A stretch of DNA of 64,000 nucleotides from Bythopirellula sp. Lineage in GTDB: Bacteria; Planctomycetota; Planctomycetia; Pirellulales; Lacipirellulaceae. How positions within the stretch are numbered: the first letter of the stretch is position 1; every line of letters begins with the position of its first letter. Positions 2,114 to 30,008 of the stretch are shown one piece after another. Under the pieces are notes generated by a model. The model was not told the origin of the DNA and searched no databases. It was given only the letters and a program-made list of their open reading frames with translations. The DNA is taken from the NCBI GenBank assembly GCA_965216565.1, contig OZ244170.1, forward strand, positions 1,856,001 through 1,920,000, in the 5' to 3' direction. Made by a program: the position numbers and the translations under genes.

Positions 2114-2920
2114 CTACGAGCCGAGAGGGTGGGGAGATCGATGGCTGATTCTCAGAAACAAAGAGGAGAAAGTTCCGCAGACCAGCATTAATCCTGCGCC
2201 CGGTTCTGGGACCGGTATTCCATTCAGGGCCAAGTACTCTTCGAGGTAGAGAGATGCATGGTGCAGACGCTCGACAGGACCGGCACCATCGGGGGAAAGT
2301 ATGACGAAGAGAGGATCGCTGGATTCGTACTGTGAGGCTTCCGGGGCGGGTGCTGTTGCCGACAGCCTGAGCTGAAGGACGTGGATCTCGTTGAGCGGCT
2401 GACCAACGGTGCTGTAACTGGGAACGATGTCCCCGGTGCCTCCCGACGGAACTGACGTGCTAAGCTGAATCGTTCCAAGGGAATCCGTAGTGATTGGTGC
2501 CGCTAAGGTTTGTATGGATATCACCTCCCCCGGGTCGAGCGATTCGAGGTTTGGAATTGTTCCCGCAGCGGGCATGATCGAGGGGGCTACCCACTGCCAG
2601 GAATCGATTAATTCCAACTCCAGGGAATAGCCGGCAAGAAACGAAGAAGCAACTTGGGGGGTAACTTCAAATTCTGGAAACGTGGTACTCGATTGATCGA
2701 GCTGAGAAATGTAGTTGCTCCAATGATCGTGGATGCTGTTGACGTACAAGCGAACCGCCGGGGCACCATCGTCCGCTCCGTTATTTACCCCCTGAGCCTG
2801 TAGTTTTCCGGCAACCACTTCAATTTCGAAACCACGACCGTCGTGGGCGTGGGCAGAAATTGTTCCCTGCACCATAGCAATCAGAAACAGGCCAAGTTGC
2901 AGTATTCTCGGTTTCATCAT
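2114..2920 (-). CDS. PEP-CTERM protein with His-containing motifs, unknown function
   Basis: Signal peptide ending AHA-HDGR; IHDHW and LHHASL motifs; VPEPGAG plus hydrophobic tail. Confidence 0.85.
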   Translation of the reverse strand: MMKPRILQLGLFLIAMVQGTISAHAHDGRGFEIEVVAGKLQAQGVNNGADDGAPAVRLYVNSIHDHWSNYISQLDQSSTTFPEFEVTPQVASSFLAGYSLELELIDSWQWVAPSIMPAAGTIPNLESLDPGEVISIQTLAAPITTDSLGTIQLSTSVPSGGTGDIVPSYSTVGQPLNEIHVLQLRLSATAPAPEASQYESSDPLFVILSPDGAGPVERLHHASLYLEEYLALNGIPVPEPGAGLMLVCGTFSSLFLRISHRSPHPLGS

Positions 2921-2963
2921 CTATATATTCTAATTGCAGATGCGTATTGCACAGCAAATGCGC

Positions 2964-5900
2964 CTATCGTCTCCAGGACAGGCGCATGACGCCCAACAAG
3001 AGAGCTAGGATTAAGCAATTGGGCTCAGGAACCGTCGTTGCAGCAGGTAGAGAAGCACTCTGGCTGCCGTAGTTGGCTTGCCATAGTTGCAAATCCGCAC
3101 CATTAACCTGGCCGTCGTTGTTGGCATCACCATCGGAGATCGTCGCTCCGGACAAGATGCCGTTGCCCTGCTGCCAAATAAGAAAGTCGAGGCCGTCGAC
3201 GTCGCCGTCTAAATCGAAGTCTCCTTGGATACCAGAAAGTACCCCATAAAACTGAATCTCCGCAATCTGCATCGAGTTAGCACTTCCAGCGTCATGGAGA
3301 TCCGTAAAAATAATCCTGTAGGATGAGTAAGGAATCGTAGAGCCATCAATGGATTGCAGCGGGGCATATGTATTACGAGCAGAAGGTAAGGCAAGTGTTC
3401 CCGTGTCAATCAACGTCCAAGTTTCGGAGGTTCCTGTGCTATTGTCGGCGCTTGCGATCAAATCGTTCGTCCCGAACAGTTCCCAGGTAGATGGATCTCG
3501 CTCTTGAAAATCGTCCGCCGTGATGATCTGAAAGCTCTCTACAAATGAAGGCCCTAGAGCGGGAGTTACGATAAATCCAGAGTTGATCTCGCCAAAGTTC
3601 AAGTACTTATCTAGAGTGCCGTCTATGGCGTTGGCTGGGGACTCCTCTGCGGGATAAGAACTATTACCCCCCGCATCAATGGCAATGATCGCATCGCCGG
3701 GAGTCAATATAGCTTCGCCATCCTGCACTACGGTGCCAAAGAATTTGAGCTCGCCTATTTGCATCTCACCCGCCTCTAGCCCTCCCTTAAGATCAGTGAA
3801 AATCAATCTATAGGAAGAATAGGTGGTGGTATTCGCTACCGTCACTAATGGTCCGAGAGTGTTGCGAGCAGTGGGCAAGGCTATTGCTCCAGAATCCATC
3901 AACGACCAATTCTCAGCCAACCCAGTGCTGTTGTCGGCGCTTGTTACCGGATCGGTCGTCCCAAATAGCTGCCAGCCTGATGGATCTCGATTCTCGAAAT
4001 CGTTGGGCGTCGAGAGCTGGAAACTCTCGATAACCGAAGCACCGCTGACTGGAGTGATGATCAATCCTGAGTTTAGATCGCCAAAATTTAGATACTTCTG
4101 GTTTGTGCCATCGACAGCCTTTGCAGGCGATTCTTCTGCTGGGTAAGAACTGTTGCCGTCCGTATCAACCGCAAGCACTACATCCGCAGCAGACAGTAGT
4201 CCGGGAGTCTCGTGAATGCCAACATTGCCAAAGAATTCAATCTCAGCGATTTGCATCGAATCGGCTACGGCTGCGTTCTTAATTCCAGTAAACAGCATGC
4301 GATACGATGTGTAGCTGTCGTTGTTTGCAACTGTAACTAGTGGTCCCAAGGTGTCTCGAGCATCGGGCAACGCTACCGAACCAGTGTCGATTAGAACCCA
4401 ATTTTCGTTGGTACCAGCGCTGTTATCGCTACTGGTCACGGAATCCTTCGTACCATAGAGTTCCCAAGTCGTAGGATCGCGCTCACTAGCGTCATTGGCC
4501 GTGGTGATCCGAAACTCTTTCACCACGGAACCACCGGTCGAAGGTGTGGCAATGAACCCAGAGTTCTCTTCACCAAAGTTAAGATACTTGGCCAACGTTC
4601 CATCAACGGCGTGTCCCGGCGGTTCCGGACCGTTGGGTGCTCCAGCGATGGGATAGGAGCTATTTCCATCGGTATCAATCGCAATGATTGGATCTCCCGG
4701 CAGAAAGATGGAGGGTAGGGTGGTAATTCCTCCATCTCCGAAAAACTGGACCTCACCAATCTGCATTGCATCGGTGGCCCCAGCGTTCTTCAAATCGTTA
4801 AAGACCATGTAGTAAGAAGAATAGACGTCGGAATTGTCAACGGCCATCAAGGGACCAACCGTATTGCGAGACTGTGGCAAAGATACGGGTCCCGAATCGA
4901 GCAAAGTCCAACTTTCGTTGGTACCCGTACTGTTGTCACTGCTAGTGACTGGATCGTTGGTTCCGTAGAGTTGCCAAGACGAAGGATCGCGCTCAGGCAC
5001 GTCGTCGGCCGTAGTGATTTGAAAGCTTCTCACAACCGAAGACCCCGCCGACGGGGAGACGATGAAACCTGAGTTGGACTTGCCAAAGTTGAGGTATTTC
5101 GCTCCAGAACGATCAATTGCATTTTGAGGTGCTTCGCCACTTGGATAGGAACTGTCTCCATCGAGATCGACCGCGAGAATCGGGTCGATTGGTTGTAGTA
5201 AAGGGTTACCGCCTGCTGATTCGGCCAGGCCGATATCAACTGCAAACGAAGCATTGGCAATCAACTGCCCTGACGCTTGGATATTGGTATCGACGAAACC
5301 TAAAGGCGCGCCCGCATCCACCGATATGACGCTGGTAAACTGCACAGGAAAATTCATTTGTGCATGGAAGGTTGTCAGATTACCAATCGTAGAGCCTTGA
5401 GTCAGATTGATTGTTCCATTGGTGCCACCCGGGGCGAAGCCACCGATGTTGTTCGAAGCGAGATCAATTGTCGTGGTGGCCGATCCGCTGACGTTGAGAG
5501 AGCCTTCATTGAAGGTAGTTAGGTGCTGAGATGCATCGAAGCTATGATTCAAGTCTCCGAAACCCAATGAATTAATAGATGCAGGCGGAGACGGAGTATT
5601 TACGGTACCCACAATGCCAACGGCATCGACGTGAATATTGATGCCGAATCCGGGGTTAATATCGAAGCTCATCTGGTTGTTGGCAGCAACTCGCCCACCA
5701 GTGAGGTTCAGTCCTGAGATCCTGGGTGTGGCTGCCGATGGATCAATTGTCAGAATCGATCCCAGCGTTCCGCTAAAGGAAGCAGAGTCGAAATCAGATT
5801 GCCCCAAGGCTTCAACGGTAAAAGCAACGTTCGAAAGATTACTGTCCAGCGTAAAGATGGGATTAACGTCAATTGCCAGCGCCAGCCCCCCTCTCAAGCA

Positions 5901-8728: not shown

Positions 8729-10207
8729 TTAAGATTTCTTGGCCGGGTCGGTGCCATTTATCCAAGGCCCCTCCAGCGACTGGTAAGGTTTCGGATATAG
8801 GACGCTTCCCTTGTCGCCAGCGTCCCATCCGGCAACATGACTCGGTTCGGCTCCCGTGGCAGAATCGTGCTCCCACTTCTTGGCCCAAGAATTGTTGCCG
8901 TCTGAGATTGTCATCGTCTCTTTGTCGAAATGGAAAACCTTACCTTCCCGGTAGCTGCGAGCACCCAACTTCACGAGCACCATAGCGGCAGCACCAAGCT
9001 CCGGAGAGCAGTTCACCGCGTCAGGGTCGTCGGCTCGAACAGCATCGACAAAGTTTTTGAAATGCGACAGGGAAGTGTTCTCGACCTTGCCAACCTCGAC
9101 ACGCTCATTCTTTATCGAACTATCGTGTGTCACTTGAGGACGTTCAGCGACGAAGTCGTAACCCGCAAACTCTTCTCCGGTACCAAAGACTACCGATCCA
9201 TGGTGTCCGCGGATGAGTTGGCGAATCGGCGTATTGCCGCAACACATCGTCGCGGTGACCAATCCCTGTACTCCTTCGTCGAAGTCTGCAACAACCGTTG
9301 CCACATCCGGAACCTGACGGCCATCTAATTCCAGGAAGATTCCCCCGGCTCCCACCACTCGGCCTGGGAATCGCAACCCAGTTGCCTTGAGCATAGAAGT
9401 GCTACGATGAACGAAAAGATCAGTGAACATGCCTGATCCGAAGGGCCAATAGCAGCGCCACTGGGCATACTTCGCTCGATCGAATGGCATGGAAGGGGCC
9501 AAGTCGAATTCCGTGCCTAAGAACATATCCCAATCAATATTCTTGGGCGTCATGTCTTCGCCCAAGCCGTAGTAACGCCACTGTCCCATATCGGAATTGC
9601 GGAAGAATTCGGTTTGATACTGCAAGACTTTGCCGAGTTTGCCATCACGGATGGACTGATTCACGTGCTGCCAAACAGGCAATGCTGTTGATTGCACACC
9701 AACTTGCATGACCTTGCCCGACTCTTTCCACGCTTTGTGGACTGCCAGTGCCTCTTCCACAGTATGCGTCATCGGCTTTTCGCAGTAGACATGCTTGCCG
9801 GCTTTCAACGCATCGATAGTTTGACGAGCATGCCAATGATCAGGAGTCGAGATACAGACCGCGTCGATCGAATCGTCAGCAAGTATCTCTCGGTAGTCAC
9901 CAGTTACCAAAGGCTCGTTGCCCATGGCCTCCTTCACTCGATTGGCAGCTTGGTCCCGATGTCGATTAAACACATCACAGACGGCTGCAATTTCTAGCGA
10001 GGCGTCCTCTTCATGAATCTTGAAGGAACTATCCAAGTGGGCCCCACAACGTCCACCCATGCCGATAAAGCCAATTCGCAACCTTTCGTTCGGACCCGTT
10101 GCGTTTCCTTTTGTAGCGGCCAATAACGATGGCACGGCAGCAAGCGAACTGACTCCGGCTACGGATGCACCGATAAAATTGCGTCGAGAATAAGAATCTT
10201 CTGCCAC
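8729..10207 (-). CDS. Tat-exported Gfo/Idh/MocA family NAD(P)-dependent oxidoreductase
   Basis: SRRNF twin-arginine signal; IGFIGMGGR, TPDHWH, GKHVYCEKP; AAAGGAG RBS before GTG. Confidence 0.92.
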   Translation of the reverse strand: MAEDSYSRRNFIGASVAGVSSLAAVPSLLAATKGNATGPNERLRIGFIGMGGRCGAHLDSSFKIHEEDASLEIAAVCDVFNRHRDQAANRVKEAMGNEPLVTGDYREILADDSIDAVCISTPDHWHARQTIDALKAGKHVYCEKPMTHTVEEALAVHKAWKESGKVMQVGVQSTALPVWQHVNQSIRDGKLGKVLQYQTEFFRNSDMGQWRYYGLGEDMTPKNIDWDMFLGTEFDLAPSMPFDRAKYAQWRCYWPFGSGMFTDLFVHRSTSMLKATGLRFPGRVVGAGGIFLELDGRQVPDVATVVADFDEGVQGLVTATMCCGNTPIRQLIRGHHGSVVFGTGEEFAGYDFVAERPQVTHDSSIKNERVEVGKVENTSLSHFKNFVDAVRADDPDAVNCSPELGAAAMVLVKLGARSYREGKVFHFDKETMTISDGNNSWAKKWEHDSATGAEPSHVAGWDAGDKGSVLYPKPYQSLEGPWINGTDPAKKS

Positions 10208-10232: not shown

Positions 10233-12254
10233 CTATTGAACAACGGGGTTATCCAAAACCCGTCGCCTGTTGAGAAGTGGTGTCACAACTAGTGAAGCTA
10301 ACACCAAAACAAGTGTTCCAGGCTCAGGAACTGTACTCAAAGCTGCGCTGATGGGTGGCGCACTGCCGTATTGATTTTCCCAAATCACGAGGTCGTCGTT
10401 ATCCACATCGCCATCTCCGTCAGCGTCACCCTGGGATTGTGTCGAGCCACTTCCCAGTCCTTGCTGCCAAATAAGGAAATCGAGACCATCTACCAAACCA
10501 TTTCCATCAAAGTCTGCGTTGTCCGAAGTAGCTAAGCTACCAAAGAATTGAATGTCGCCGATCTGCATGATTGGATCATTCGTGTCACGTAGATCGGTGA
10601 AAATCATGCGATAAGAAGTATAGGCCGATGTATTGGTGACGCTCACCACATCGCCTTCAGTCAACCGAGCCAGGGGGACTTCGTTGGGGTCAAATGCGCC
10701 AAAGTCGATCAGCACCCAATTCTCGCCGTCGCCCAGGCTGTTGTCTTCGCTGACGATCGCATCGTTGGTTCCATAAAGAGCCCAAGCGGCGGGATCCCGC
10801 AAGTCAGCATCATTGGCCGTTGTGATCTGGAAACCGTCTATCACAGACGAACCCACTGTAGGCGTTACGATAAAGCCACTATTCTTATCGCCAAAGTTGA
10901 GATACTTAGTGAGCGCTGCTCCATCGATAGCATTGGCAGGAGATTCGTTGACTGGGTAGTCACTCTGTGGCAAGAAGTCGGCATCGATAGCTAGGATCGG
11001 ATCGTTTGGATCCAATACAGCAGAGCCGGTTCCACCTGTTCCCGTGAAAAACTCTGCTTCGCCCAAGTGCATAATAGGGTCACCAAGGTTTTTTGTCGTA
11101 GGAAAGAGTATTTTGTACGAACTGTAGGTATTTCCATTGGAGACATCTACGAAGCTTCCTTGGGCATCGCGGGTTGCTGGGGTGTCGGTAGTTCCCGTAT
11201 CGATGAATGTCCAGTTTTCGCTAGTTCCCAAGCTGTGATTCGCGCTGGATATCGTTTCATTGGTGCCGTAAAGTTCCCAAGTGGCTGGGTCACGTTCGAC
11301 AAAATCCTGTGCCGTGGAGAATCGCATACTTTGTACCTGCGACGATCCCGAGGCAGGAGTCACAATGAATCCGGAGTTGGCCCCACCAAAGTTGAGATAC
11401 TTATTGGCTCCTGCGAGACCATCGATAGATTTCTCTGGCCCCTCGCCCGGGGGCGACGCACTCAACGAACTGCCATCGGTATCGATTGCAATAATCGGGT
11501 CTCCAGGTAAAAGCAATTCATTGGATCCAGTCAGACCGATATCTACAGCAAACGAACCTGTCGCCACTAAAGTGCCGGTCACTGTGACATCGGCATTGTT
11601 CGATTCATCAACAGCAATTGTATCTGAGAAGTTTATGGGAAAGTTTAGAGCGGCTGTGAACTGAGTCAGGTTCTGTACTGTTGAGCCTTGAGTCAGATTG
11701 ATCGTCGCTGCAGGAGTGGCAGGACCTGGGCCTTCGACCGGATCCTCTAAAGTTGCCAGATTTACTTGCGTTGTGATGAAGTCAGAGACATCCAGAATGC
11801 CTTGGTTGAAGGCTGTGGTGTGGTCGGAAGCATTGAATGTATAGGACAGGTTGCCACCACCAGTCGAGGTGATTGATGCTGGAGGCGCGGATGTATTTAG
11901 CGTGCCACCCAACCCAAGGGCATCGATGTGGATGTTCAAGATTCCACCAAGCAACGGCAGATCGAACATCATCGTGTTGTCCGCGGTATAGCTTCCACCG
12001 GTGAAGTTCAAACCGTTTATCAACGGCGTCCCTCCCGAAGGATCAATTGAAAGAATCGAATTGATCGAGCCACTGAGGGGGCTGCTATCCGTATCGGTTG
12101 CTTGACCTTGCACACCGGTTTCGATGGTTACACTCGATTGGGTGTTATCAACAGCAAACATAACAGGACGATCAACGGCCTGCGATTCGCATGCAATCGC
12201 TCCCAGAATAACAATACTTAACGAGATTCTAAGTAACTTGTTTAATCGATTCAC
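10233..12254 (-). CDS. PEP-CTERM surface protein: N-terminal beta-rich domain (paralog of 2964..5990), 2 discoidin-like repeats, dockerin-like domain
   Basis: Two KYLNFG repeats; [29 protein letters not shown] at 12254 has GGAG upstream (track start 12269). Confidence 0.88.
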   Translation of the reverse strand: MNRLNKLLRISLSIVILGAIACESQAVDRPVMFAVDNTQSSVTIETGVQGQATDTDSSPLSGSINSILSIDPSGGTPLINGLNFTGGSYTADNTMMFDLPLLGGILNIHIDALGLGGTLNTSAPPASITSTGGGNLSYTFNASDHTTAFNQGILDVSDFITTQVNLATLEDPVEGPGPATPAATINLTQGSTVQNLTQFTAALNFPINFSDTIAVDESNNADVTVTGTLVATGSFAVDIGLTGSNELLLPGDPIIAIDTDGSSLSASPPGEGPEKSIDGLAGANKYLNFGGANSGFIVTPASGSSQVQSMRFSTAQDFVERDPATWELYGTNETISSANHSLGTSENWTFIDTGTTDTPATRDAQGSFVDVSNGNTYSSYKILFPTTKNLGDPIMHLGEAEFFTGTGGTGSAVLDPNDPILAIDADFLPQSDYPVNESPANAIDGAALTKYLNFGDKNSGFIVTPTVGSSVIDGFQITTANDADLRDPAAWALYGTNDAIVSEDNSLGDGENWVLIDFGAFDPNEVPLARLTEGDVVSVTNTSAYTSYRMIFTDLRDTNDPIMQIGDIQFFGSLATSDNADFDGNGLVDGLDFLIWQQGLGSGSTQSQGDADGDGDVDNDDLVIWENQYGSAPPISAALSTVPEPGTLVLVLASLVVTPLLNRRRVLDNPVVQ

Positions 12255-12305
12255 AATACTTCTCCGCAATAATCATTGATAAGAACTGTTTTCCATAGAA
12301 AAGGG

Positions 12306-16508: not shown

Positions 16509-18337
16509 TATTGGGCACTCCTTTGCAGATAAGCCTGTGGAGAGGCCTCTGAGGTCGTGCCACTCGTGCCAAATTGGTTTGCTGGCGCGGAGCGAGATGA
16601 CATATGTCGAACTAGCTCGCTGGGAGAATCGACGAGAATCGCAGCATCAAGTTTCTTAGCACACCAAGCAGCAGCAGCGACACCTGCAAATGTTCCGGGC
16701 TGGTGATACTTGGCATCCTGGGTCGCACCTAGCTCTGTGAAGCCAGACCACGCATGAACTGCTATCCAGCCAGACATCGGCACTAGAGTATTGACTTCTT
16801 TCTTTGATCTGGACTGATTTATCATCGCTGCAATTTCGTCCGGCGTGCCGGCCCCGGGGCGATTGGCACTGGACCAAATCGTATGAGTGGCCGAGATGAA
16901 CGGGACGCTGCTGCTATTCGGACGACCAATCTCCCACACACGACCTTGCCCGCCTTCATAGGGGTGGTACTGCATGACGAATGCCGCCTGCAGGGACGGT
17001 GCCGCGGCTGCTAGAACTTCCCATGCCTCTAACGTGTGAGGATTGTCTAGTTGCTCGCAGATCAAAATAATCGAATTCAACCCAGATCGCTTCAGCACAC
17101 TTTCGATTCGACTGCCATACCAACGAAGCAGCGAATCTTTTTCTGCAACCGAACGTTTCGTCCCCAAGTGGTCTACGAAAACGTATTCCGGGGCAACCAA
17201 TATCGAAGTCAACGCAGACTTAGTACGCTGAAGATGCAGGTAAGCATCAGGGGCTACCTCGATTAGATCTGCAATCGGCAAGCCAAAGCCGAAAGGCAAT
17301 GTTTCGAGTTCTGGAGAGTGCCAGTACTTTTTATTCCAGACAAAATCTCCCAAGATCCATTGTAGGTTGTCGCCGTCGCTCAACACAAAAGAAGTGCGAC
17401 GTTTGCTTTTGCCGGTCTGGTCTATTTCTCTAGCGGGCACTTCGTCAAAATGTGGTAACTGCACCTCAGTCGAACCAATCGACAGTGCTGGAAGGTTTAA
17501 GGCCCAATCCGAGGGGCAGAGAACATGCCCCCAACTGCTTAACTGTTGGACTGCCTCGCCTTCCTCTTGAAATTGATTCCAACCATGCACCAAAGCCGGC
17601 GCTTGGAGCCACTCATAGACATGTTCAACTAATTCTGACTTGCCCCGAATCGTGAGCGCTCGATGTGCGATCGCGATAGCACGATTGTTAGGGATTTCGG
17701 TAGATTGCAGGAGTAATTGCTTTTTGTTCAAGCTATTCTTGAATTCTTCAAAGCACCAACTCTCGGTTTTACCACGTGCATCAAGCAACTTGGAAAGCCC
17801 CAGTTTTTTGGCTTGGGCCTCTTGTTGCTCTGAAATCAGAACGCCGCGCAATAAGCCCGCAGCGGTAGTGGCAACGTTCACCGAAACGTCTGCGCTCTCT
17901 TTCGCCTTGCCGCTGCTATACAGGATATAACCAGAAACAATCTCTTGCTTGTGGTATCGAGCAACCAAGTCCCAGACTGTGGCATAACCTCGATCCTCGA
18001 TCCCTGTTCGGTCGAGTAAGTCGCGGCGCCAGGTGTGGTAGCTGGCGTTGTCCCAGAGATCTACATAAACCAGCTCATCTCCTCGTCCTTCATTGACGGC
18101 TTGAGCGGCCAAACCCGCCAGCGATTGTGCCAGAAAGGCATCGTCGCTCAAATTGATTGGCTTCTTGTTCGATTCATCTTTCTGAAAACTCAAGCTATCG
18201 ATAGAAACTAAGCCAGCAGGAGTAGTTTGAAGAGGCCAGAGTCGTGTGCTCTCGGTCGCCGTTGTCTCCCTGCACGATAGCACCACCAATAGCCCCAGAG
18301 CTAGAACGGCTTTCAGGAATGAGGGGCGAATATACAT
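16508..18337 (-). CDS. Second GxGYxYP-family protein (secreted or lipoprotein, degenerate signature)
   Basis: SLAGL, GYILY, NVATTAAGL, PSDWALNL, SFVLSDGDNLQW, VHAWS. The GxGYxYP motif itself is not recognisable. Confidence 0.8.
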   Translation of the reverse strand: MYIRPSFLKAVLALGLLVVLSCRETTATESTRLWPLQTTPAGLVSIDSLSFQKDESNKKPINLSDDAFLAQSLAGLAAQAVNEGRGDELVYVDLWDNASYHTWRRDLLDRTGIEDRGYATVWDLVARYHKQEIVSGYILYSSGKAKESADVSVNVATTAAGLLRGVLISEQQEAQAKKLGLSKLLDARGKTESWCFEEFKNSLNKKQLLLQSTEIPNNRAIAIAHRALTIRGKSELVEHVYEWLQAPALVHGWNQFQEEGEAVQQLSSWGHVLCPSDWALNLPALSIGSTEVQLPHFDEVPAREIDQTGKSKRRTSFVLSDGDNLQWILGDFVWNKKYWHSPELETLPFGFGLPIADLIEVAPDAYLHLQRTKSALTSILVAPEYVFVDHLGTKRSVAEKDSLLRWYGSRIESVLKRSGLNSIILICEQLDNPHTLEAWEVLAAAAPSLQAAFVMQYHPYEGGQGRVWEIGRPNSSSVPFISATHTIWSSANRPGAGTPDEIAAMINQSRSKKEVNTLVPMSGWIAVHAWSGFTELGATQDAKYHQPGTFAGVAAAAWCAKKLDAAILVDSPSELVRHMSSRSAPANQFGTSGTTSEASPQAYLQRSAQ

Positions 18338-21300: not shown

Positions 21301-22411
21301 TGTTTAACGTACCGTCGAGGGCATTCTGAGGCGACTCGCCACCCGGATAGGAACTATTGCCATCGGTATCGATGGCAATAATGGTATCGGCAGGCGAAAG
21401 GATAGAAGTAGCCGCTGGGAGTTCGATCGGCACGCCAACCAGTGTCTCCCAAGTTGGCGCAGGCGAAGAAAGAACATCTTCAATTTCTAAGGCAAACACA
21501 CTCGAGGCGGCGCCTGTCTGAAATAGCTGTGTGGCATAGCCACTTACAGAACCCGCATCGTCACGAAACCGTACACGAAGTTCGTAATCAGTATTCTCAG
21601 TCAGAATTGATTGGCCGGCCTGGGAGTTGAGAAAGATGCCATCGCCCAAGTGCGTGTGCAATCGCTCAACTCCTTCGATTCCCAGTGTTTGCCAAACTGG
21701 CTCTGCGCCTCCGCCAACCGTCCAGATCTCCCAGTCCGAAGATTTATGCAAGTCTCCGTCCGTGTCCGAGAACCCGACAGCTTCCATGTGAACATCCGCC
21801 GGATTCACGACCTGCCCAGGGGATGAAGGTTCAGTGACAACCGGAGTATTCGGCGAATTATTCGGGCCACTGGGCACTCCGACGACATGAATGTAATTGA
21901 TTCTCGTGTCGAGATTTGCTGCAGCCCCTGCGTCAAGAGTGAGAAGCCCGTTAACAACGGTGACTTGGTTCGTAGCAACCATTGCGCTGCCCGTATCGGC
22001 AACAGCGTTGAAGAAGCTCGTACCCTGCACGTTAATCGTGTGTATGCCATCGTTGTTGCCGGGATCGCCGACGGCGACAGTCACTTCGTAGGAACCGTTG
22101 GCAAGCTGGAATTCCCAGTCTTGGCCCGATTCTATCATGATCAAAGTATCGAACCGCTGATCGGGCTCTGCGCTACGTTCTACTGTTCGGTCCGAATGAT
22201 CACTCGACCAACCGTAGGTCAATCCATTCCCACGCGGTCCGAAGAGTTCTCCGATATCTCTTTCATATCCTGTTGGAATTGTAGCTTCATCATTTTGGAA
22301 GTTGATGAGATACGTATCCCCCGCCAACAAGACACGCGGTTCCAGCAGCTCAAGCTGAAGACGTGTCTTCAGCTTTTCACCATGATCTTTGCGATTGAAA
22401 CTAAAATTCAT
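18380..22411 (-). CDS. LEPR-XLL extracellular protein with sugar-binding-like N-domain, 2 discoidin-like repeats, PQQ-dependent sugar dehydrogenase (GSDH) propeller and dockerin-like domain
   Basis: LQLELLEPRVLLAGD; INFQ...GY..D.G...GW; two KYLNFG repeats; GEQGLTGI, HQISNITIGPDDKLYVHNGDG, GKILRMNKDGSVPTDNPF, AYGLRNPF; GDFDLDTDVDGDDL. Confidence 0.88.
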   Translation of the reverse strand: MNFSFNRKDHGEKLKTRLQLELLEPRVLLAGDTYLINFQNDEATIPTGYERDIGELFGPRGNGLTYGWSSDHSDRTVERSAEPDQRFDTLIMIESGQDWEFQLANGSYEVTVAVGDPGNNDGIHTINVQGTSFFNAVADTGSAMVATNQVTVVNGLLTLDAGAAANLDTRINYIHVVGVPSGPNNSPNTPVVTEPSSPGQVVNPADVHMEAVGFSDTDGDLHKSSDWEIWTVGGGAEPVWQTLGIEGVERLHTHLGDGIFLNSQAGQSILTENTDYELRVRFRDDAGSVSGYATQLFQTGAASSVFALEIEDVLSSPAPTWETLVGVPIELPAATSILSPADTIIAIDTDGNSSYPGGESPQNALDGTLNKYLNFGEANSGFIVTPLVGASIVESFEITTANDFEERDPSAWQLFGTNDAIVSADDSDGSGENWTLIDSGALSLPSARDTLGSGVSVTNSTAYTSYRMVFTGVKNSGAANSMQFAEIQFYGQQSGTSALLSSGNPIIAIDTDGNSGYPVGETPANAIDGSLDKYLNFGKINSGFIVTPPNSSAIVKSFVITTANDAEDRDPTTWQLFGTNDPITSTDNSTGGAENWTFIDAGGVSLPSARDTLGPSVAVGNSTAYSSYRMIFTGVKDSGAANSMQIGEIQFFGESGVPLAAPSLRVESGSGDLLLSIEGDEASGNVVTNPSTLSNHVDVRVAISGGSTGLTLDNTDLTFTDDDGRVQTIFLPNMSVAAGETKIFWVAVDGSTYFGQSGQTTPDFSTLARAADLSVPYLAAQPGFVVEEVGSDYRLPVNIAFVPDPGTNPNDPLYYVTELYGSIQVVTNDGTKHEFATGLLDYNPTGPISGSGEQGLTGITVERDSVNPDIYHLYVGMLWDNGSPPGGASHFPKVERLDSVAGGLSLDTRTVLLNMQPETQGQSHQISNITIGPDDKLYVHNGDGFDASTALDLDQFRGKILRMNKDGSVPTDNPFYNAGDGINARDYVFAYGLRNPFGGAWRESDGKHYSVENGPSVDRLAQINAGVSYGWDGSNGSMFTNAAYNWNPAHAPVNITFVQQSTHSGSQFPQHMWDHAFVSESGPTYAAGAQTLGKRIVEFEFDAAGNVVGGPTTLVEYVGLGHSSVVGLSAGPDGLYFTELYEESGASGPTATGSRIFRVRYTGGPAGDFDLDTDVDGDDLAIWESNYDTDTGATVLDGDADGNGAVTGLDFLLWQTNYTGPQVLSALNESQPGHSALTAEPQPSVTGPQFSKITHQITIEELNARADSGASQDVDSSIPFAGLESGRDTQTGTQLGGPTTTIDQVQRSAPETSDLHRDSGDDEDSFVEFADEVFTEFADFHLQ

Positions 22412-22503: not shown

Positions 22504-22950
22504 CTACTTGGCAGCTACAGGAACCAGCTCTAGAAACTGAGTTTGATTTACCTTTTGGATTCTTCCCAAACTGAAACCAACCTGACGCATGCCGTCAGTT
22601 GGTTCTTTCTCGTAGGCGACAACATCGGGCGACACGCCTTTCGGGCGAGGGCCATAGATCACAACTAAAGGTTGACCACTTCTTTCAGAGACAAACAAAT
22701 CTTCAACCGAGGCGACTTCACTATGCTCAAGAGTTTGTTGGCATTTCTGCTGGATAAATTCTTGAAATTCCTCTTGATTCTTGGGGGCGCGACCAAGCTC
22801 CGAAGTTGCATAGTTATGAAGTGAAATCAACAACCTGAGATGAGATGTCTGCGTTTCACGGCCACCGCTAGTCTTAGCCGCATCGCAGCCTAAAGGGAGA
22901 ACTATTAGTAGCACTAAGAAGCAGAAGCGATAAGGTATTTGGCAAGTCAT
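22504..22950 (-). CDS. Small lipoprotein following DUF1559 gene
   Basis: Lipobox-like LPLGC; 148 aa; 3 nt downstream of the DUF1559 stop. Confidence 0.8.
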   Translation of the reverse strand: MTCQIPYRFCFLVLLIVLPLGCDAAKTSGGRETQTSHLRLLISLHNYATSELGRAPKNQEEFQEFIQQKCQQTLEHSEVASVEDLFVSERSGQPLVVIYGPRPKGVSPDVVAYEKEPTDGMRQVGFSLGRIQKVNQTQFLELVPVAAK

Positions 22951-22953
22951 TGA

Positions 22954-24141
22954 CTAAAGTGACCCCATATCAACAACTCTCCCGTCAGTCCGGTGCCCTA
23001 GTGTATTGAACAGTTCTAGATCAATCTCATAGCTAATCGGGCGTACCGAGCCATCAGCAAATCCAGAGTTCATGATGGCACTATGAGCCGAGCCGAACCG
23101 ATACGCAGCCAGTTCACTTCCGTCATCTTCATCGGGGCCGATTTGACAGACCGTAGAGCGTAGGCCATCGAAATCCCAACCTCCCGACCACCCCCTGTCA
23201 TCGTGCCAATCTCCAACATCGTAAAGACTTGGCTGGAGGCGTTTTTCACCAATCACTAACGTATTACTTGAACCGTCAGTAATTTGTGCGAAAGATATTT
23301 TTTCGTAAAAGCCAGTGACCATCGTCTCGCCGTCGGATGGACAATTCACGCACAGATCACTGCGGACAATGACTCCCCAAAACCCGTAGTAAGTTGGGCC
23401 CAGAGAATCGACGGTAGACATGGTATCTTCGTGTGTTGGGCCGTTACTGAATGCGCCCCAAAAAGTCTTGGATGAGCATCCAGTGGTATCGCCGAACGAA
23501 GGATTGAAATTAAAGAACGGATTGGCAACGTTGTTCGGTATACCGTACTGCTCGCCAGACCGAAAAGGTACCGCAGCAGCGTAATCCATCAAATAGGGGC
23601 TGCCGTTGGTCTCTGGAATAGTTCCCGCCCATCGCGTGGGTCCTCTTCTAGAAGGACAGTTGAACATCGGATTGTTCGCGTTATCCAACTCAGCCTGAGT
23701 CTTAATGTTGTAGACGTTTCCACCTTCAAGATAGGGCAAGATTTGAAACGCCCATCCCAAGCCCTGCTTCTTAGGCCCATAGGGCGATCCACCTGGGCCG
23801 TTCAGATAGTCTTCGAGATTTGGCCACGGCACGACACCGCCACTGGGGAAAGCGCTCCTGGCAGATTCATGGTTGTGCATCGAAAGCATAATTTGCTTGA
23901 CGTTGTTAGCACAACTCGAACGTCGCGCAGCTTCCCGAGCCGCCTGCACGGCTGGAAGCAGAAGTGCGACTAAGACTCCAATAATGGCTATAACGACCAG
24001 GAGTTCGACCAACGTAAAACCAGCCCGCTGCTGAGAGAAAGAAGAAGACGAACGATTGGAGTGTCGTCTCCCAGTTCTTCGACTGCGACCAGAACATGTT
24101 GCCGAAGGCTTTTGCAACTCGTATTGAATCCTGTCAATCAT
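22954..24141 (-). CDS. DUF1559 (prepilin-type N-methylation, H-X9-DG) protein
   Basis: [63 protein letters not shown]. Start set at ATG 24141 with AAGGA RBS (track start 24252 spans an intergenic hairpin). Confidence 0.95.
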
Positions 24142-24174
24142 TCTCTGTCCTTTTGATGCCTTGTACACTCTCGC

Positions 24175-24208
24175 CACACGCGCCCTTTGCGATGAAAAGG
24201 CGCGTGTG
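24175..24208 (-). terminator. Intergenic stem-loop
   Basis: Perfect 10-bp inverted repeat cacacgcgcc / ggcgcgtgtg between the PEP-CTERM gene and the DUF1559 start. Confidence 0.55.
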
Positions 24209-24278
24209 ACCAAAGCGATATCTTTTGAGTACCAGCAAGAGATCCTGCTCATCTCAAAAGATGATAAAGCCGCGGCAC

Positions 24279-26156
24279 TCAGCCCCTAGAGACGCGGCGT
24301 CTTGAACTTGCAAAGGCTCCCAGCAATCCAACCAGTGTCAGAACAGCGGCAGAGGGCTCGGGAACAGAACTAACAGCAGCAGTGATTGGGGCACTACCGT
24401 ATTGGGTTTCCCAAACTGCCAAGTCTGCGGAGTCAATGACACCATCACCATTGGCATCGCCATTGCTGTTGTCCGTTTGACCTGCCAACCCGAATCCTGT
24501 TTGGAAAATCAGGAAATCCAGGCCATCGACGATACCGTTACCATCGAAGTCTGCATTGTCTGTAGCAGTGCCAAAGAAATCGACTTGAGCAAACTGCATC
24601 GAGTTTGCTGCTCCCGAATCACGCAATGTGGGGAAAATCATTCGGTAAGACGAGTAAGCAGTGGAATTGTTAACAGAAACCAATGCACCTGTCGTATGAC
24701 GAGCCAGAGGAATCTCAGCGTTATTCGGATCGAACGTGCCTGAATCGATCAGCACCCAATTCTCTTGATCACCCTGGCTATTGGATTCACTAGTAATTGG
24801 ATCGTTCGTACCGTAGATCTCCCACGAGGCGGGATCACGCGGTGGTTCGTCCCCACCCGTAGTAATCTGGAACTCGTCGAGGATCGTACTACCAGCTGAA
24901 GGCGTGACAATAAAACCACTATTCTCTTTGCCAAAGTTCAGGTAGGTCGTCTGAGTACCCGGTTGTGCATCGGGATCGACTGCTAGTACGGGATCTCCCG
25001 GAGACAGAATGTTAAGTCCGGAGCCGTTGGGATCCAGGAAGAACGCAGCCTCAGCGATCTGCATAAGCGGATCGTTAATGATCTTCAGTTCGGGGAACAG
25101 CATCTTGTAGGAGCTGTAGCTGGTTGCATTAGTAACTGGAATAACTGGGCCAGGAGTATCTCTACCTGCCGGCATGTTGACGTCACCAAAGTCAACTAGT
25201 GTCCAATTCTCGGAAGTTCCGAAGCTGTTGTTGCCACTGGTAATTGGGTCGTTGGTTCCAAATAGCTGCCATTTGGCGGGATCACGACCTTCGGCGTCGT
25301 TGGCAGTAGTCAGCTGGAAGCTTTGTACCTGCGCGGAGCCAAAAGATGGGGTAACGATAAATCCAGAGTTAGTACCTCCGAAATTCAAATACTTGGCAAG
25401 GGTACCATCAACCACGTTTTCAGGACCTTCGCCACCAGGTGAACCACTTTGTGAGCCACCGAAAGCATCGATCGCGATTTCAGCAGTCTGTCCACCGGGG
25501 CTACTGGAAGAAGGCTGAGTATCCAGCCCGATGGCTACCACAGGATTGGCAATATTGAAAACAGTCGAACCGGTCCCATCATTAGATGTGAATAGCTCAA
25601 AGTCGCCAATCTGCATGGAGTCTGAGTTCGCGGCATCGCGGACCGTCGGAAAAACGACGCGATAAGAGTTGTAGGCGGTGGCATTTGCAAAACTCTGCAC
25701 GGGCCCTGCAGAAAATCGGTTGGGATCGGTATCGAGCCCTGTTACGCCGGAACTAATTAGCGACCAATTCTCTTGATCTCCAAAGCTGTCGTTGCCGCTT
25801 GTGACTGTATCATTTGTCCCGTAGAGCTCATAGGTCAAAGGATCGCGGTTAGGTTCGTCATTCGCAGTTGTAATCCGAAGGCTCTGAACAGTTGTAGAAG
25901 GGGTAAACGGCGTAGCAATGAACCCCGTGTTTAGCTGCCCAAAGTTGAGGTACTTCGTGCCTGGATTCAAATCCAATGCGTTTACAGCACCCTCGCCCCC
26001 GGGGGAATTACTGTTCGACATCGTTCCGGGGTCGGTATCGATGGCAATTATAAAGTCGTTTGCATCAAGTAGCGATATCGCCAAGCCTGTGCTTGGCAGC
26101 AGCATAGCCACACAACTTGCGGCAAATGCCAGTGTTGCTGAAGTTTTCATCTTCAA
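24279..26156 (-). CDS. PEP-CTERM surface protein with 3 discoidin-like repeats and dockerin-like domain
   Basis: Signal peptide; (K/T)YLNFG three times; [26 protein letters not shown]. Confidence 0.92.
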
Positions 26157-26318: not shown

Positions 26319-27452
26319 TTACTTCCGGCGTCGCAAACCTGCAGTCAAGCCAATCAGTGCTAGTACCAAGCTCGTTGGCTCAGGAACTACTGAACCTTCA
26401 AACAGCACTTCACCAATTTGGATCTCTCCAATACCAGCGGACTGCCGCTGGGTTGGGAACACTAGTCGGTAAGCACCGTAGGCCGTCGAATTAGCAACAG
26501 CCTGAGCGGCTCCAGTTGCTTCGCGACCGGGATCGGTGTCAAATCCAGTGATGCCAGAATCGACCAATGTCCAATTCTCACCTGCGCCAACGCTATTGTC
26601 CAAGCTGGAAATCGGATCGTCGGTGCCGTAAAGGTCCCAAGTCAGAGGATCACGTTCAGGGACGTCATTACCAGTAGTAAAGGTCAAGGAATCAACAACG
26701 GTAGCCAGCCCATCGGCTCGCTTAATGATGACGCCGGAAAACTCTTTAGCAAAGTTCAAGTACTTAGCTCCGCTCGTGCCATCGACAATGTTTGATGGGT
26801 TATCCGAACCGGGATAGTTACTTTGGCCACCGAAGTCATCAATCTCAATTGCTGCGTCGCCACCAGCCAAAATCTGAGAGCCTGAACCGCCAGCACCGGT
26901 GAACAGGCTGAGGTCTGCAACTTGCATGCAGCAATCGAATGCGTTCTTAATTGTTGGGAATGAAATCTTGTAAGAAGTATAAGCCGTACCATTGGCAAAA
27001 TCCTGAATGGTTCCTGGTGTGAAGCGAGCACCAACGCCCGCCAATCCAGAGTCGCCTGTGCTAATAAGTGACCAGTTTTCTGCATCGCCAAAGCTATTAG
27101 ATGTACTAGTGATGGCATCGTTCGTGCCATAGAGACGGTAAGAAAGGGGATCGCGGCCGTCTGCATCATTAGCCGTTGTAAGCTGAAGACTCTGAACAAT
27201 CGACGAGCCAAAAGCCGGTGTAATGATGGCTCCCGTGTGTTGTTTGCCAAAGTTCAAATATTTGGTAGCGCTGTTTTGATCGGTAAGTTGACTAGCGGCT
27301 TCGCCAGCACCAGGAATGCCACTATCGGGTCCCGAGTCGAGATCGACAGCTAGAATGATGTCGCTGCTGTTAAACAAGTTCTGCGCGGAAGCAACTGTGC
27401 TGAACTGAATCAAGCAAGCTACCGCCAATACTGTTGTCATAGTCTTCTTCAT
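26319..27452 (-). CDS. PEP-CTERM surface protein consisting of 2 discoidin-like repeats
   Basis: Signal peptide MKKTMTTVLAVA...ASA; KYLNFG and KYLNFA repeats; VPEPTSLVLALIGLTAGLRRRK; GGAGG RBS. Confidence 0.93.
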   Translation of the reverse strand: MKKTMTTVLAVACLIQFSTVASAQNLFNSSDIILAVDLDSGPDSGIPGAGEAASQLTDQNSATKYLNFGKQHTGAIITPAFGSSIVQSLQLTTANDADGRDPLSYRLYGTNDAITSTSNSFGDAENWSLISTGDSGLAGVGARFTPGTIQDFANGTAYTSYKISFPTIKNAFDCCMQVADLSLFTGAGGSGSQILAGGDAAIEIDDFGGQSNYPGSDNPSNIVDGTSGAKYLNFAKEFSGVIIKRADGLATVVDSLTFTTGNDVPERDPLTWDLYGTDDPISSLDNSVGAGENWTLVDSGITGFDTDPGREATGAAQAVANSTAYGAYRLVFPTQRQSAGIGEIQIGEVLFEGSVVPEPTSLVLALIGLTAGLRRRK

Positions 27453-27602: not shown

Positions 27603-27660
27603 ATTAGTTGTGTTAATTGGTTGAATAATGTACAAAAGTTGTAGTATCATATTAGTTGTG
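27603..27660. promoter_or_regulatory. Candidate operator array in divergent promoter region
   Basis: ATTAGTTGTG at 27603 and 27651; TACAAAAGTTGTA at 27631-27643; AT-rich region between the divergent genes. Confidence 0.5.
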
Positions 27661-27684: not shown

Positions 27685-28845
27685 ATGGTTACAAGGCAAA
27701 TGGGAAATCTCGATTCAGAAGCTCGATTTGATAGGGCGAGTAGTAATATGGAACCAATTAGACCCAGTCTGATGCCAAAACACGCTCATCTCAGGAGAAC
27801 CCTGGCGGGTTTTATTCTGGATGGGACTTGGTCCGACGGCGAACGAGTGCCGTCTGAGACCCAGCTCTCGAAGAAGTTTGGTGTCTCTCGCACTACAGTC
27901 ATTCGAGCTCTGCGCGATATGGAGCGAGATGGGCTCGTCTCGCGTCGCCAGGGATCTGGAACCTACGTTCGAAACGGGCTAACAGGGCAAAGTTCGATTG
28001 GGGTGTTGATTCCCGGGTTAGCGCCAGACGACATTTTCCTTTCTGTCCAAAGACACATCTTCAGGGAGAGCAGTCGTTTTAACTGGCAAGTCCTGAATGG
28101 AGAGGTACTCCTTCCCGGAGACACCGACGCAGCGGGACACGCACCGGTCGAGGCTGCGAAAAAACTTGTTCAGACTGGAATCTGCGGCGTTGTGCTGGTG
28201 CCGCATCATGTGCAAGAAGAAACTGAAAGGTGCAACGAAGCGGTCCTCAATGTGTTTCGCAGTGCCAAGTTGCCAGTAGTCTTGCTCGATCGGGACATCT
28301 ACGAAGCACCACATCGAAGTCCTCACGATCTAGTGAGTCTCGACAATAGTCGTGCTGGTTTCGAGTTGGCTTATCATCTCATGTCTCGTGACCGTGCACG
28401 GTTTGTCTATGTAGGCGATCCTCACGTCTATCCAAGTACGCACGCGCGACTTAGTGGTGTGAGAAAAGCGCTTTCGCTTGAGGGTATTTCGCTAGCCGAT
28501 AAGTGCGTACTCCCAGGTTCCGAAGAAGGATATACAGCTGTCATTGAAAAGATCCGGACAGATAAAATTGATGCGGTGATTTGCAATTCTGACCACGATG
28601 CCGCGTTAGTGATGAGGAAATGCCTTGAGGCGGGATTCGAGATTCCAAAGCAAGTGGCGATCGCCGGTTTTGACGATCAACCGATTGCTAAACTGTTAAA
28701 TATTCCTTTAACGACAGTAGCCCAACCAGCACAGGGACTGGCAGTTCGGGTCATTTCAACTTTACGAGATCGCATCGAGTACCCAGATCTTCCGCCGACT
28801 ACGGTGCGAATCCAGGGAGAATTGATCGTCCGCGAGTCCACTTAA
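27685..28845 (+). CDS. GntR-wHTH / LacI-type sugar-binding hybrid transcriptional regulator (AraR-like)
   Basis: PSETQLSKKFGVSRTTV..AL..MERDGLV.RRQGSGTYV at the N-terminus; IPKQVAIAGFDD, LTTVAQP, LIVREST at the C-terminus. True start may be 27748 or later. Confidence 0.95.
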   Translation: MVTRQMGNLDSEARFDRASSNMEPIRPSLMPKHAHLRRTLAGFILDGTWSDGERVPSETQLSKKFGVSRTTVIRALRDMERDGLVSRRQGSGTYVRNGLTGQSSIGVLIPGLAPDDIFLSVQRHIFRESSRFNWQVLNGEVLLPGDTDAAGHAPVEAAKKLVQTGICGVVLVPHHVQEETERCNEAVLNVFRSAKLPVVLLDRDIYEAPHRSPHDLVSLDNSRAGFELAYHLMSRDRARFVYVGDPHVYPSTHARLSGVRKALSLEGISLADKCVLPGSEEGYTAVIEKIRTDKIDAVICNSDHDAALVMRKCLEAGFEIPKQVAIAGFDDQPIAKLLNIPLTTVAQPAQGLAVRVISTLRDRIEYPDLPPTTVRIQGELIVREST

Positions 28846-28853
28846 GCTGACGG

Positions 28854-30008
28854 ATGCGAATTTCAAGCAAGAACGGATTTGGTTGGATGATTACGGATTT
28901 TAAGGATCGCATTCTCTCTCTGGTTGCGGCTCTTACAGTCTTTGTCTGTGCTTGCGTCAGTTCGGCCTATTCTCAACTGCCCGCTGGATTCGAGAATCTG
29001 CGCCTGAATGAAATCCAGGTGATTGGGAGCCACAACAGCTTCAAAGCTGCCATCGATCCGGTGCTCTTCGAGGCGATGTCAAGAGTTGTACCGGCATCTC
29101 GAGAACTGAATTACGCTCATCCACCGCTTACTGATCAGCTAAATCTCGGTTTGCTAAACCTAGAGCTGGATATTTACCACGATCCGAACGGCGGACTCTT
29201 CGCAGAACCATTGGGTTTGGCGATGGTTCGTGAATCTGGAAAGTCGCCTCAACCCTACGATCCGCAAGGAGAAATGCGGAAACCAGGATTCAAGGTGCTT
29301 CACGTCCCGGACATCGATTTTCGCTCAAACTGTTTGACCCTTTCCCACGCGCTTCGTGAACTTCGCGAGTGGTCTGAGGCAAACAGCAACCATCTTCCAG
29401 TGGTTATTACCGTCAATCTGTCGGACACCCCGATTCCCTTGCCGGGAAGCGTAAATCCGATTCGCTTTGATGAAGCAGCGCTCGAGGCACTGGATAGTCA
29501 ATTGCTCCGAGAATTGGGAGCAATGAAACTAATTATCCCTGATCAAGTGCGCGGTGATAAAGAAGATTTGGAATCGGCGATACTTCAAGACGGTTGGCCT
29601 AAGATTACGGAACTCACGGGGCGATTCATGTTCGTCCTAGACGATTTCGGACGGAAGCGCGACCTGTATGTGTCCGATCACCCGGGACTCCGCAATAGAG
29701 TTTTGTTTGTGAACAGTAGTCCCGGCAATCCCTACGCCGCCGTGATGATTCGCAACAATGCCCTCATTGAAAGCGAAGCCATTACGGACTTAGTGAATAG
29801 TGGCTATCTAGTCCGCACTCGGGCAGATTCAGGCACGCATGAAGCGAAATCCGGTGACTACTCCCGCTTTGAAGCTGCTAAGAAAAGCGGCGCCCAGATA
29901 ATTTCTACTGACTTCTATCTTGCCGATTGGCGCTTGAATCCTGGCTATCGTGTCCGCTTCGAGAAAGGAAAGTGTTTTCGGATCAATCCGGTTACCGGTG
30001 ACCGTTAG
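28854..30008 (+). CDS. Secreted Ca2+-dependent phosphoinositide phospholipase C-like protein (PI-PLC-C1 type)
   Basis: LRLNEIQVIGSHNSFK, LELDIYHDP, GFKVLHVPDIDFRSNC, GYLVRTRAD, SGAQIISTDF; signal peptide. Confidence 0.88.
   Translation: MRISSKNGFGWMITDFKDRILSLVAALTVFVCACVSSAYSQLPAGFENLRLNEIQVIGSHNSFKAAIDPVLFEAMSRVVPASRELNYAHPPLTDQLNLGLLNLELDIYHDPNGGLFAEPLGLAMVRESGKSPQPYDPQGEMRKPGFKVLHVPDIDFRSNCLTLSHALRELREWSEANSNHLPVVITVNLSDTPIPLPGSVNPIRFDEAALEALDSQLLRELGAMKLIIPDQVRGDKEDLESAILQDGWPKITELTGRFMFVLDDFGRKRDLYVSDHPGLRNRVLFVNSSPGNPYAAVMIRNNALIESEAITDLVNSGYLVRTRADSGTHEAKSGDYSRFEAAKKSGAQIISTDFYLADWRLNPGYRVRFEKGKCFRINPVTGDR

Follow-up and report, generated by a model that had tools for sequence, protein, structure and literature searches.

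A candidate alpha-mannoside capture cluster with CBM32-like lectin arrays and a DUF1559 pilin in Bythopirellula

Background

How large glycans pass the outer membrane of planctomycetes is an open question (PMC5394234; papers are cited by PubMed Central identifier, and what is taken from them refers to excerpts of their texts). A gene cluster of a Bythopirellula species poses this question for a defined sugar. The cluster lies in a window of 64,000 nucleotides, by which the whole stretch of DNA analysed is meant (G000:C1:1856001-1920000), in a genome of 5.2 Mb (G000, a single contig, 94% complete). It encodes surface proteins with repeated lectin-like modules, a pilin-like protein of the DUF1559 family, two GxGYxYP proteins, a sodium:solute symporter (SSS), and a family 92 glycoside hydrolase (GH92). 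With a probability of roughly 0.6 this cluster, which is likely one regulon, serves to capture glycans ending in alpha-1,2-linked mannose at the cell surface and to remove the mannose inside the cell, with neither SusC nor SusD found. The observations behind this reading are the gene content and order, the contact residues of 13 modules, the signature of the GH92 together with its lack of a signal peptide, and two operator-like sites.

Gene organization of the cluster

A sequence-only reading of the window had described about 25 kb of co-oriented genes divergent from an AraR-like regulator. This was borne out: 14 open reading frames (ORFs) are co-oriented on the minus strand from 2114 to 27452, with two overlaps and eleven gaps of 3-165 nt (distances of -16, -1, 3, 18, 25, 26, 36, 42, 43, 92, 159, 162, and 165 nt). 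The start of the regulator is 232 nt away from this run, on the opposite (plus) strand. All reading frames of the cluster are intact. The gene types that had been named (DUF1559 plus lipoprotein, two GxGYxYP proteins, SSS, signal-less GH92, and a twin-arginine (Tat) oxidoreductase) were all recovered. Pfam and NCBIfam models identified a GntR-type helix-turn-helix (HTH) plus LacI-type sensor, DUF1559 plus N_methyl, two GxGYxYP, SSF, and GH92 domains, and in addition a Gfo/Idh/MocA domain accompanied by a twin-arginine motif as well as domains of the GSDH and PI-PLC-C1 families. Within the proposed span of 2114 to 30008 a 174-aa membrane protein had been overlooked, and the cluster probably reaches left of 2114. 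The regulator, the site in front of it, and the 14 genes are, from right to left:

27685..28845, plus strand: AraR-like regulator, GntR HTH and LacI-type sugar-binding domain (Pfam); 62-67% identical orthologues face the same core in L033, L034, and L081
27632..27652, minus strand: operator-like site 1, kept in L033, L034, and L081 (33.6 bits)
26319..27452, minus strand: PEP-CTERM protein, 377 aa, two CBM32-like modules
24279..26156, minus strand: PEP-CTERM protein, 625 aa, three CBM32-like modules, cognate neighbour of the window's DUF1559 clade
22954..24252, minus strand: DUF1559 pilin-like protein with N_methyl, PF07596, and H-X9-DG; member of a six-member clade (support 100/99)
22504..22950, minus strand: small predicted lipoprotein, 148 aa, lipobox, no family; in G028 and G082, homologues of 41-47% identity stand behind pilins of the same clade
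18380..22411, minus strand: 1343-aa fusion of two CBM32-like modules and a GSDH-type propeller, no PEP-CTERM
16508..18337, minus strand: GxGYxYP predicted lipoprotein, putative catalytic E/D/D present
14451..16508, minus strand: SSS; 60-68% identical orthologues directly ahead of GH92 in L033, L034, and L081
12306..14432, minus strand: GH92 without signal peptide, alpha-1,2 signature, C-terminus about 40 aa short
10233..12269, minus strand: PEP-CTERM protein, 678 aa, unclassified N-terminal domain and two CBM32-like modules
8729..10207, minus strand: Tat Gfo/Idh/MocA oxidoreductase, probable passenger; 68% and 63% identical paralogues elsewhere in the genome
8045..8569, minus strand: membrane protein, 174 aa, about four transmembrane segments, no family; 50% identical paralogue elsewhere in the genome
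5987..7879, minus strand: GxGYxYP PEP-CTERM protein, putative catalytic E/D/D present; 64-65% identical orthologues in L033 and L081
2964..6002, minus strand: PEP-CTERM protein, 1012 aa, unclassified N-terminal domain and four CBM32-like modules
2114..2920, minus strand: PEP-CTERM protein, 268 aa, no recognised family; comes after the GSDH fusion in G029, G065, and G071

The absence of a TonB-dependent receptor and of SusD, noted earlier for the cluster, extends to the whole genome: in its 94% complete sequence there is no match to PF00593 or PF07980, while the positive controls matched, and thus no SusC/D-like pair was found elsewhere that could account for uptake. TonB receptors do occur in the family, as 35 of 98 relatives have a match. 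The genome encodes 241 PEP-CTERM proteins, one exosortase, and five secretins.

CBM32-like modules of the surface proteins

The module carrying the KYLNF repeat is present in 13 copies of about 158 aa, which are 37-67% identical, are distributed as 4+2+2+3+2 over five proteins, and do not occur elsewhere in the genome. That five surface proteins share the module was correctly read from the sequence, but not all of them are PEP-CTERM proteins: four have this end, and the fifth is the 1343-aa GSDH fusion. Four of the five contain no catalytic domain recognised by Pfam.

A profile of the 13 modules matches the N-terminal CBM32 of the Neobacillus novalis GH92 enzyme NnGH92 (PDB 7NSN, residues 94-219) with an E-value of 1.8e-12, the next PDB match being at 7.5e-4. 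This CBM32 contacts mannoimidazole via E105, F122, D148, and R152 (PMC10167667). Counting along the profile alignment, E105 corresponds to the E of G-E-x-P, F122 to the F of KYLNF, D148 to the D of TAND, and R152 to the R of RDP. All 13 window modules have the F, D, and R, and 11 of them have all four contacts (the exceptions are one Asp and one deletion), as do 64 of the 77 fully aligned modules of related loci and 247 of 353 library matches. The second CBM32 of NnGH92, for which the excerpted text reports no ligand (PMC10167667), is without the D and the R in the same alignment. Judged by this alignment, the repeats are CBM32-like modules and homologues of the CBM32 with which NnGH92 binds a mannose analogue, and the five surface proteins are predicted mannose binders. 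The lectin role assigned to them before gains support from the homology and the shared ligand residues.

No protein of the window matches Pfam PF00754 at E 0.01, and 8 of 36 longer module homologues scanned do. An AlphaFold model of the module is mostly beta, with a mean predicted local distance difference test score (pLDDT) of 87.9. At E 0.001 the module family comprises 3765 representatives, at 1e-30 still 417; a PEP motif ends 79 of the best 150 homologues. The module was found in 26 of the 98 family genomes and, at E 1e-30 with nine candidates scored per genome, in 2 of 400 genomes across the phylum. It recurs in surface proteins of 1300-1600 aa with lamin-tail and CotH-kinase domains (L063:6660-11078, L029:3037-6915, L061:12800-17509, and the further fusions L069:7998-12815, L072:1501-5769, and L075:8127-12533), and one module lies inside an open frame of 7097 aa in L009 (G018:C1:2714267). 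The N-terminal 220 aa of the products of 2964-6002 and 10233-12269 form a shared unclassified domain (47% identity) with only two library matches.

Enzymes of the cluster

The best match of the window's GH92 is Bt3990 (E 4e-144). It has the acid Glu, the D-x-D bases, and in the +1 subsite the Trp/His-Glu triad that is tied to alpha-1,2 specificity in GH92 (PMC10167667). Among the four GH92 genes in the genome, a motif search found both the W and the His-Glu motif in this one alone. Its N-terminus is not hydrophobic. It is therefore a predicted alpha-1,2-mannosidase of the Bt3990 type, probably cytoplasmic. Two other GH92 enzymes of the genome are secreted, and DUF1559 genes are located at distances of about 0.2 kb and 7 kb from their genes (L077:1207-11866 and L079:7643-18725); one of these loci is near a weakly matching GH99-like protein.

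The genome contains two GxGYxYP genes, both in the cluster. Both products show the family domains and the putative triad of BT2193 (E272/D331/D333). The locus points to alpha-mannosides as substrate of this family, which has so far been without an assignment.

The fusion at 18380-22411 had been taken for a PQQ (pyrroloquinoline quinone) dehydrogenase, and this label is doubtful. The His and the G-x-R-N-P of the GSDH domain are present. The C-terminal Arg-x-Arg, which in the solved relative of the domain we take to be the PQQ-binding residues, is missing from the window's protein and from each of the 10 full-length relatives shown. The score against TIGR03606 is 53.6 bits with a cut-off of 434. 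The label of a PQQ-dependent glucose/sorbosone dehydrogenase was thus rejected. A search for pqqC in the genome gave no match, in a run in which no positive control matched either. The N-terminus of the fusion carries what is presumably a LEPR-like planctomycete motif. The label of a BT_2158-type glycoside 3-dehydrogenase was likewise dropped (135 bits, NCBIfam cut-off 750).

A complete pathway from capture to trimming, as had been suggested, is not supported. With one or two BLAST seeds per family, no GH76, GH125, GH38, or GH85 was found in the genome, which therefore looks fitted to trim mannose caps rather than to take apart the backbone of a mannan or the core of an N-glycan. The locus itself contains no recognised sugar kinase.

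Operator-like sites and the extent of the regulon

A motif of 17-21 nt is common to the divergent intergenic regions of the window and of three related loci, L033 (genome G102), L034 (G112), and the metagenome locus L081. With a weight matrix from the three relatives, the two best matches in 5.2 Mb are both in the window, at 27632 (33.6 bits) and at 1938 (26.0 bits), and the next one scores 16.5. The evidence for site 1 is partly circular because the sites of the relatives were located by alignment to it. Site 2 is independent of this circularity. It precedes the gene at 1047-1790 and the gene of a 617-aa PEP-CTERM esterase, both outside the span of the sequence-only reading, so that the regulon probably extends left of 2114. 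Taken from motif and gene order, the cluster is likely one regulon under the AraR-like regulator. Scans of the window for promoters and terminators stayed near or below the expectation from shuffled sequence, except for terminator-like sites in its right half (26, compared to 17.2 by shuffling with a standard deviation of 4.3), to which no weight was given. The features on both sides of the 14 genes and the regulator are:

1938..1958, minus strand: operator-like site 2 (26.0 bits)
1047..1790, minus strand: PEP-CTERM protein behind site 2; a 31% identical homologue comes after the pilin cassette in G082
3..947, minus strand: start of a 617-aa PEP-CTERM protein with a SASA carbohydrate-esterase domain, continuing beyond the window
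28854..30008, plus strand: PI-PLC-C1 family protein behind the regulator, no link to the cassettes in the relatives checked

The oxidoreductase and the PI-PLC look like passengers. The PI-PLC family occurs in 10 of the 98 relatives; G102 and G112 have no member, and in G071 about 2 Mb separate the family from either cassette. A substrate of the glycosyl inositol phosphorylceramide (GIPC) or phosphatidylinositol mannoside (PIM) type, as could be read from the PI-PLC, was rejected as unsupported, the PI-PLC not being linked to the cassettes in relatives. To its right follow two further PEP-CTERM genes, an esterase at 30046-31080 and a protein without family at 31464-32543, which have no operator-like site among the top hits and were not found with the cassettes in relatives.

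The mannose link in related genomes

In the 26 module-bearing genomes, 5 of 35 GH92 loci are located within 30 kb of a module locus, compared to 3 of 108 GH29 and 2 of 110 GH43 loci (p 0.006 by Fisher's test, odds ratio 7), and at 15 kb the counts are 3 of 35 versus 4 of 218 for GH29 and GH43 together (p 0.058). These figures carry the caveats that related genomes do not count as independent, that contigs are fragmented, and that 35 weaker module matches stand outside the count. Genes for GH92, GH76, GH125, GH38, GH85, GH130, or GH2-mannosidases are contained in 8 of 24 module loci, four of these eight having been picked for their closeness to GH92, in a scan that covered cluster representatives and most singletons of at least 280 aa rather than every ORF. 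In G016 and G034 the module is fused to GH85. The mannose link of the module is thus enriched, not exclusive. The proposed alpha-mannoside link has real support from the alpha-1,2 triad of the GH92, the ligand residues of the CBM32, the conserved core with its operator-like motif, and some neighbourhoods rich in mannosidases.

Directly left of the window is a beta-mannan locus on the same plan (L076:101-16636, G000:C1:1838101-1854636). It encodes a LacI regulator, a PEP-CTERM Mann_GBD protein, a DUF1559 protein, a small partner, and GH113 and GH26-CBM35 PEP-CTERM enzymes, with GH130, SSS, and GH5 on the divergent side. Together with the cluster it forms a 45-kb mannan island.

A mosaic of a catabolic core and a lectin-pilin cassette

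The comparison comprised the module and GxGYxYP loci of the 98 family genomes, three genome loci, and eight metagenome loci, among the matches listed. Two parts of the cluster recur in this set. Core A consists of the regulator followed by PEP-CTERM genes, a lipoprotein, DUF1559, SSS, and signal-less GH92. It was found in L033, L034, and L081, where regulator, SSS, and GH92 are 60-68% identical to those of the window. The GxGYxYP-PEP protein belongs to core A in L033 and L081, whose GxGYxYP lipoprotein counterpart is present in just one of the three, L081. Cassette B, the PEP-CTERM protein with three CBM32-like modules (CBM32x3) plus DUF1559, is present in G028, G035, G071, G082, and G124, where the GSDH fusion often accompanies it and the lipoprotein does so twice; in G016 the CBM32x3 gene has no adjacent pilin. 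The proposal of one conserved system therefore does not hold for the full composition, but it does for core A (three relatives) and cassette B (five relatives) separately.

Pilin trees were computed with FastTree on 92 rows and with IQ-TREE on 24 rows chosen from these. The window pilin and five cassette-B pilins form a six-member clade (100/99), every member of which adjoins a CBM32x3 gene. Seven core-A pilins group with one other row (97/98) apart from this clade, and a third clade, beside larger proteins with two modules (CBM32x2), is separate from both. Because the window pilin groups with the cassette-B and not with the core-A pilins, cassette B appears to have replaced core A's own pilin. 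Judged by trees and gene order, the locus probably arose by insertion of a lectin-pilin cassette into a conserved regulator-GxGYxYP-SSS-GH92 core. The clade pattern shows at this level that pilin and lectin partner were inherited together, and stops short of co-evolution or contact.

The third pilin clade marks a third cassette (L023, L059, L063, L065, L066, L067, L070, L071, and L075), mostly beside CBM32x2 proteins. Divergently oriented to it are a sigma-70-region-2 gene and a partner of 500 aa that has no Pfam match, possibly an extracytoplasmic function (ECF) sigma/anti-sigma pair. A 752-aa protein recurs beside the GxGYxYP/SSS/GH92 core (L033:428-2686, L042:2043-4304, and L082:1-1176); its copy in G102 has no Pfam, NCBIfam, or PDB match, and it is a candidate new glycosidase.

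Several points weigh against a single alpha-mannoside system. The complete 25-kb gene order was found in no relative of the comparison. GH92 is within 30 kb of only 5 of 53 module loci, and 14 of the 26 module-bearing genomes have no GH92 match. Among the 20 module loci not picked by closeness to GH92, four have a mannoside-type GH and three GH29 or GH51, whereas the scanned proteins of the other 13 include no GH. Fusions of the module to CotH-kinase and DUF4185 domains occur as well. L035 and L083 carry GxGYxYP, SSS, and GH38, and the DNA stretches covered there contain no DUF1559. Binding of the CBM32 to mannan could not be demonstrated in the NnGH92 assays (PMC10167667), and the sugar binding of the modules is for this reason a prediction. 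GxGYxYP proteins of mannan loci gave no activity (personal communication in PMC4071793). The DUF1559 gene beside a PEP-CTERM gene is generic in this genome, such pairs, with at most 500 nt between the genes, being found for 30 of 60 DUF1559 genes (compared to 53 of 804 control ORFs). Finally, the C-terminus of the GH92 is about 40 aa short. Since the three orthologues in L033, L034, and L081 also end early, the short tail is a clade trait (70-73 aa after the D-x-D in the four clade members, 101-136 in 10 other GH92s in which the motif was found), and a recent lesion was rejected.

Some of these points would be expected if one regulator controlled two jobs. GxGYxYP, SSS, and GH92 would then scavenge small mannosides that cross porins, and the lectin-pilin cassette would only adhere to mannose-coated surfaces (fungi, algae, or glycoprotein particles) with nothing being moved across the membrane. 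Core A and cassette B travel separately, more than half of the module genomes lack GH92, four of the five lectin proteins have no recognised catalytic domain, and the catabolic core of L035 and L083 is without a nearby pilin. However, the core has its own DUF1559 clade in three of three close relatives, so that a pilin accompanies catabolism even without the lectin array, and dextran binds to pili-like fibres of planctomycetes and builds up in their periplasm (PMC5394234). We regard this division of labour as rather unlikely, and surface capture coupled to trimming as the better reading. It could also be imagined that the cluster is a patchwork of recent origin, in part decayed, within an island rich in PEP-CTERM genes, and that its modules bind a ligand other than mannose. 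The unique order, the generic oxidoreductase, membrane protein, and PI-PLC, and the abundance of PEP-CTERM genes in the genome would fit. The intact frames, the short GH92 tail in four of four clade members, and the conserved ligand residues and operator sites make such a patchwork very improbable.

The DUF1559 pilin and glycan uptake

The genome has 65 PF07596 matches and about 60 DUF1559 genes. The window's protein shows N_methyl, PF07596, and H-X9-DG (TIGR04294, 20.2 bits with a cut-off of 19), and its N-terminus matches GspG/pilin models. The prepilin family DUF1559/SBP_bac_10 of planctomycetes has been described without function in the excerpted text (PMC8567305). Internalisation of fucoidan has been shown in a report whose main text does not mention pili, TonB, or SusC (PMC11685898). 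Literature linking DUF1559 to glycan loci was not found, the coverage leaving out most subscription papers and all supplements.

That DUF1559 takes the place of SusC/D, as the sequence-only reading had supposed, is so far unsupported, the argument being co-location in a genome with about 60 DUF1559 genes. A role of DUF1559 in glycan uptake may be considered possible but doubtful. The pilin could instead be a pseudopilin of a type II secretion-like system, serving to export or display the neighbouring PEP-CTERM lectins and enzymes and taking no part in capture or import. This would agree with its GspG-like N-terminus, its tight pairing with one particular PEP-CTERM partner, and the frequent abutment of its paralogues on PEP-CTERM genes, but export has no evident need for about 60 divergent pseudopilin heads, and we consider it improbable. 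Three of the six members of the pilin clade have the lectin and no lipoprotein, which is compatible with secretion as well as with capture.

We tentatively propose, with more doubt than conviction, that planctomycetes import glycans via substrate-dedicated pili, with each DUF1559 clade forming a fibre subunit that is paired with its own PEP-CTERM lectin. If this were true, the CBM32 array would load alpha-mannosides onto the fibre, and the fibre would draw them through a secretin into the periplasm. The system would be a TonB-independent counterpart of SusC/SusD, and the pilin-lectin pair a swappable specificity cassette.

Proposed mechanism and significance

In the preferred reading, the AraR-like repressor would free both promoters once a mannoside is present. 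Arrays of CBM32, anchored via the exosortase, would retain glycans with mannose caps (high-mannose N-glycans, side chains of fungal mannan, or glycolipid caps) by avidity, and the two exported GxGYxYP proteins might cleave off short mannosides. The DUF1559 pilin and the lipoprotein would form a cassette-dedicated fibre aiding glycan transit across the outer membrane, which is the weakest step and by itself unlikely. The SSS would import the oligomannoside, from which the cytoplasmic GH92 would then free mannose.

The locus gives a defined sugar and defined genes for studying how planctomycetes capture glycans. Its assets are a monosaccharide predicted as ligand, the residues named for it, commercially available substrates, an operator, and one pilin with one cognate lectin, and the adjoining beta-mannan locus on the same plan provides a specificity control.

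Comparison with known systems

Like a polysaccharide utilization locus (PUL) of the Bacteroidota, the cluster combines a glycosidase, binding proteins, a transporter, and a regulator, but no SusC/SusD pair was found in the genome. The locus thus works like a PUL yet falls outside the PULs on SusC/SusD. The alpha-mannan PULs of B. thetaiotaomicron (PUL69 BT3853-3862; BT2199/BT2200) also have GxGYxYP beside GH92 in an alpha-mannoside context, and the Caldithrix abyssi cluster of GxGYxYP, GH92, a major facilitator superfamily (MFS) transporter, and ROK shares GxGYxYP, GH92, and a transporter with the window (PMC4071793). In contrast to both, the window has PEP-CTERM lectin arrays, a DUF1559 pilin, SSS, a cytoplasmic GH92, and AraR-like control. 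As to the earlier remark that no characterised system with this composition is known, the composition as a whole was found in none of the loci compared, but the linkage of GxGYxYP, GH92, and a transporter, including GxGYxYP beside GH92 in B. thetaiotaomicron and Caldithrix, had already been published (PMC4071793).

The N-terminal CBM32 of the N. novalis GH92 (7NSN; PMC10167667) is a homologous module with the same four mannoimidazole-contact residues. There it is appended to an enzyme, whereas here tandem arrays are found on five separate surface proteins, and the window modules carry an insertion of about 11 residues. With the DUF1559/SBP_bac_10 family as published (PMC8567305) the window's pilin shares N_methyl and PF07596, many paralogues, and flanking genes for signal-peptide proteins and lipoproteins, while in this locus a single clade goes with a single lectin partner and with a mannoside regulon. 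Akkermansia MUL2 (PMC13174399, compared by description) likewise ties a pilin-like gene to glycan use in a bacterium of the Planctomycetes-Verrucomicrobia-Chlamydiae (PVC) group. However, MUL2 is one conserved four-gene locus with PilM, and here about 60 pilin paralogues are distributed among cassettes. To these systems the locus adds, as far as genes and alignments can tell, a ligand predicted down to the contact residues, an operator that goes with a conserved core, and a clade-level pairing of pilin and lectin.

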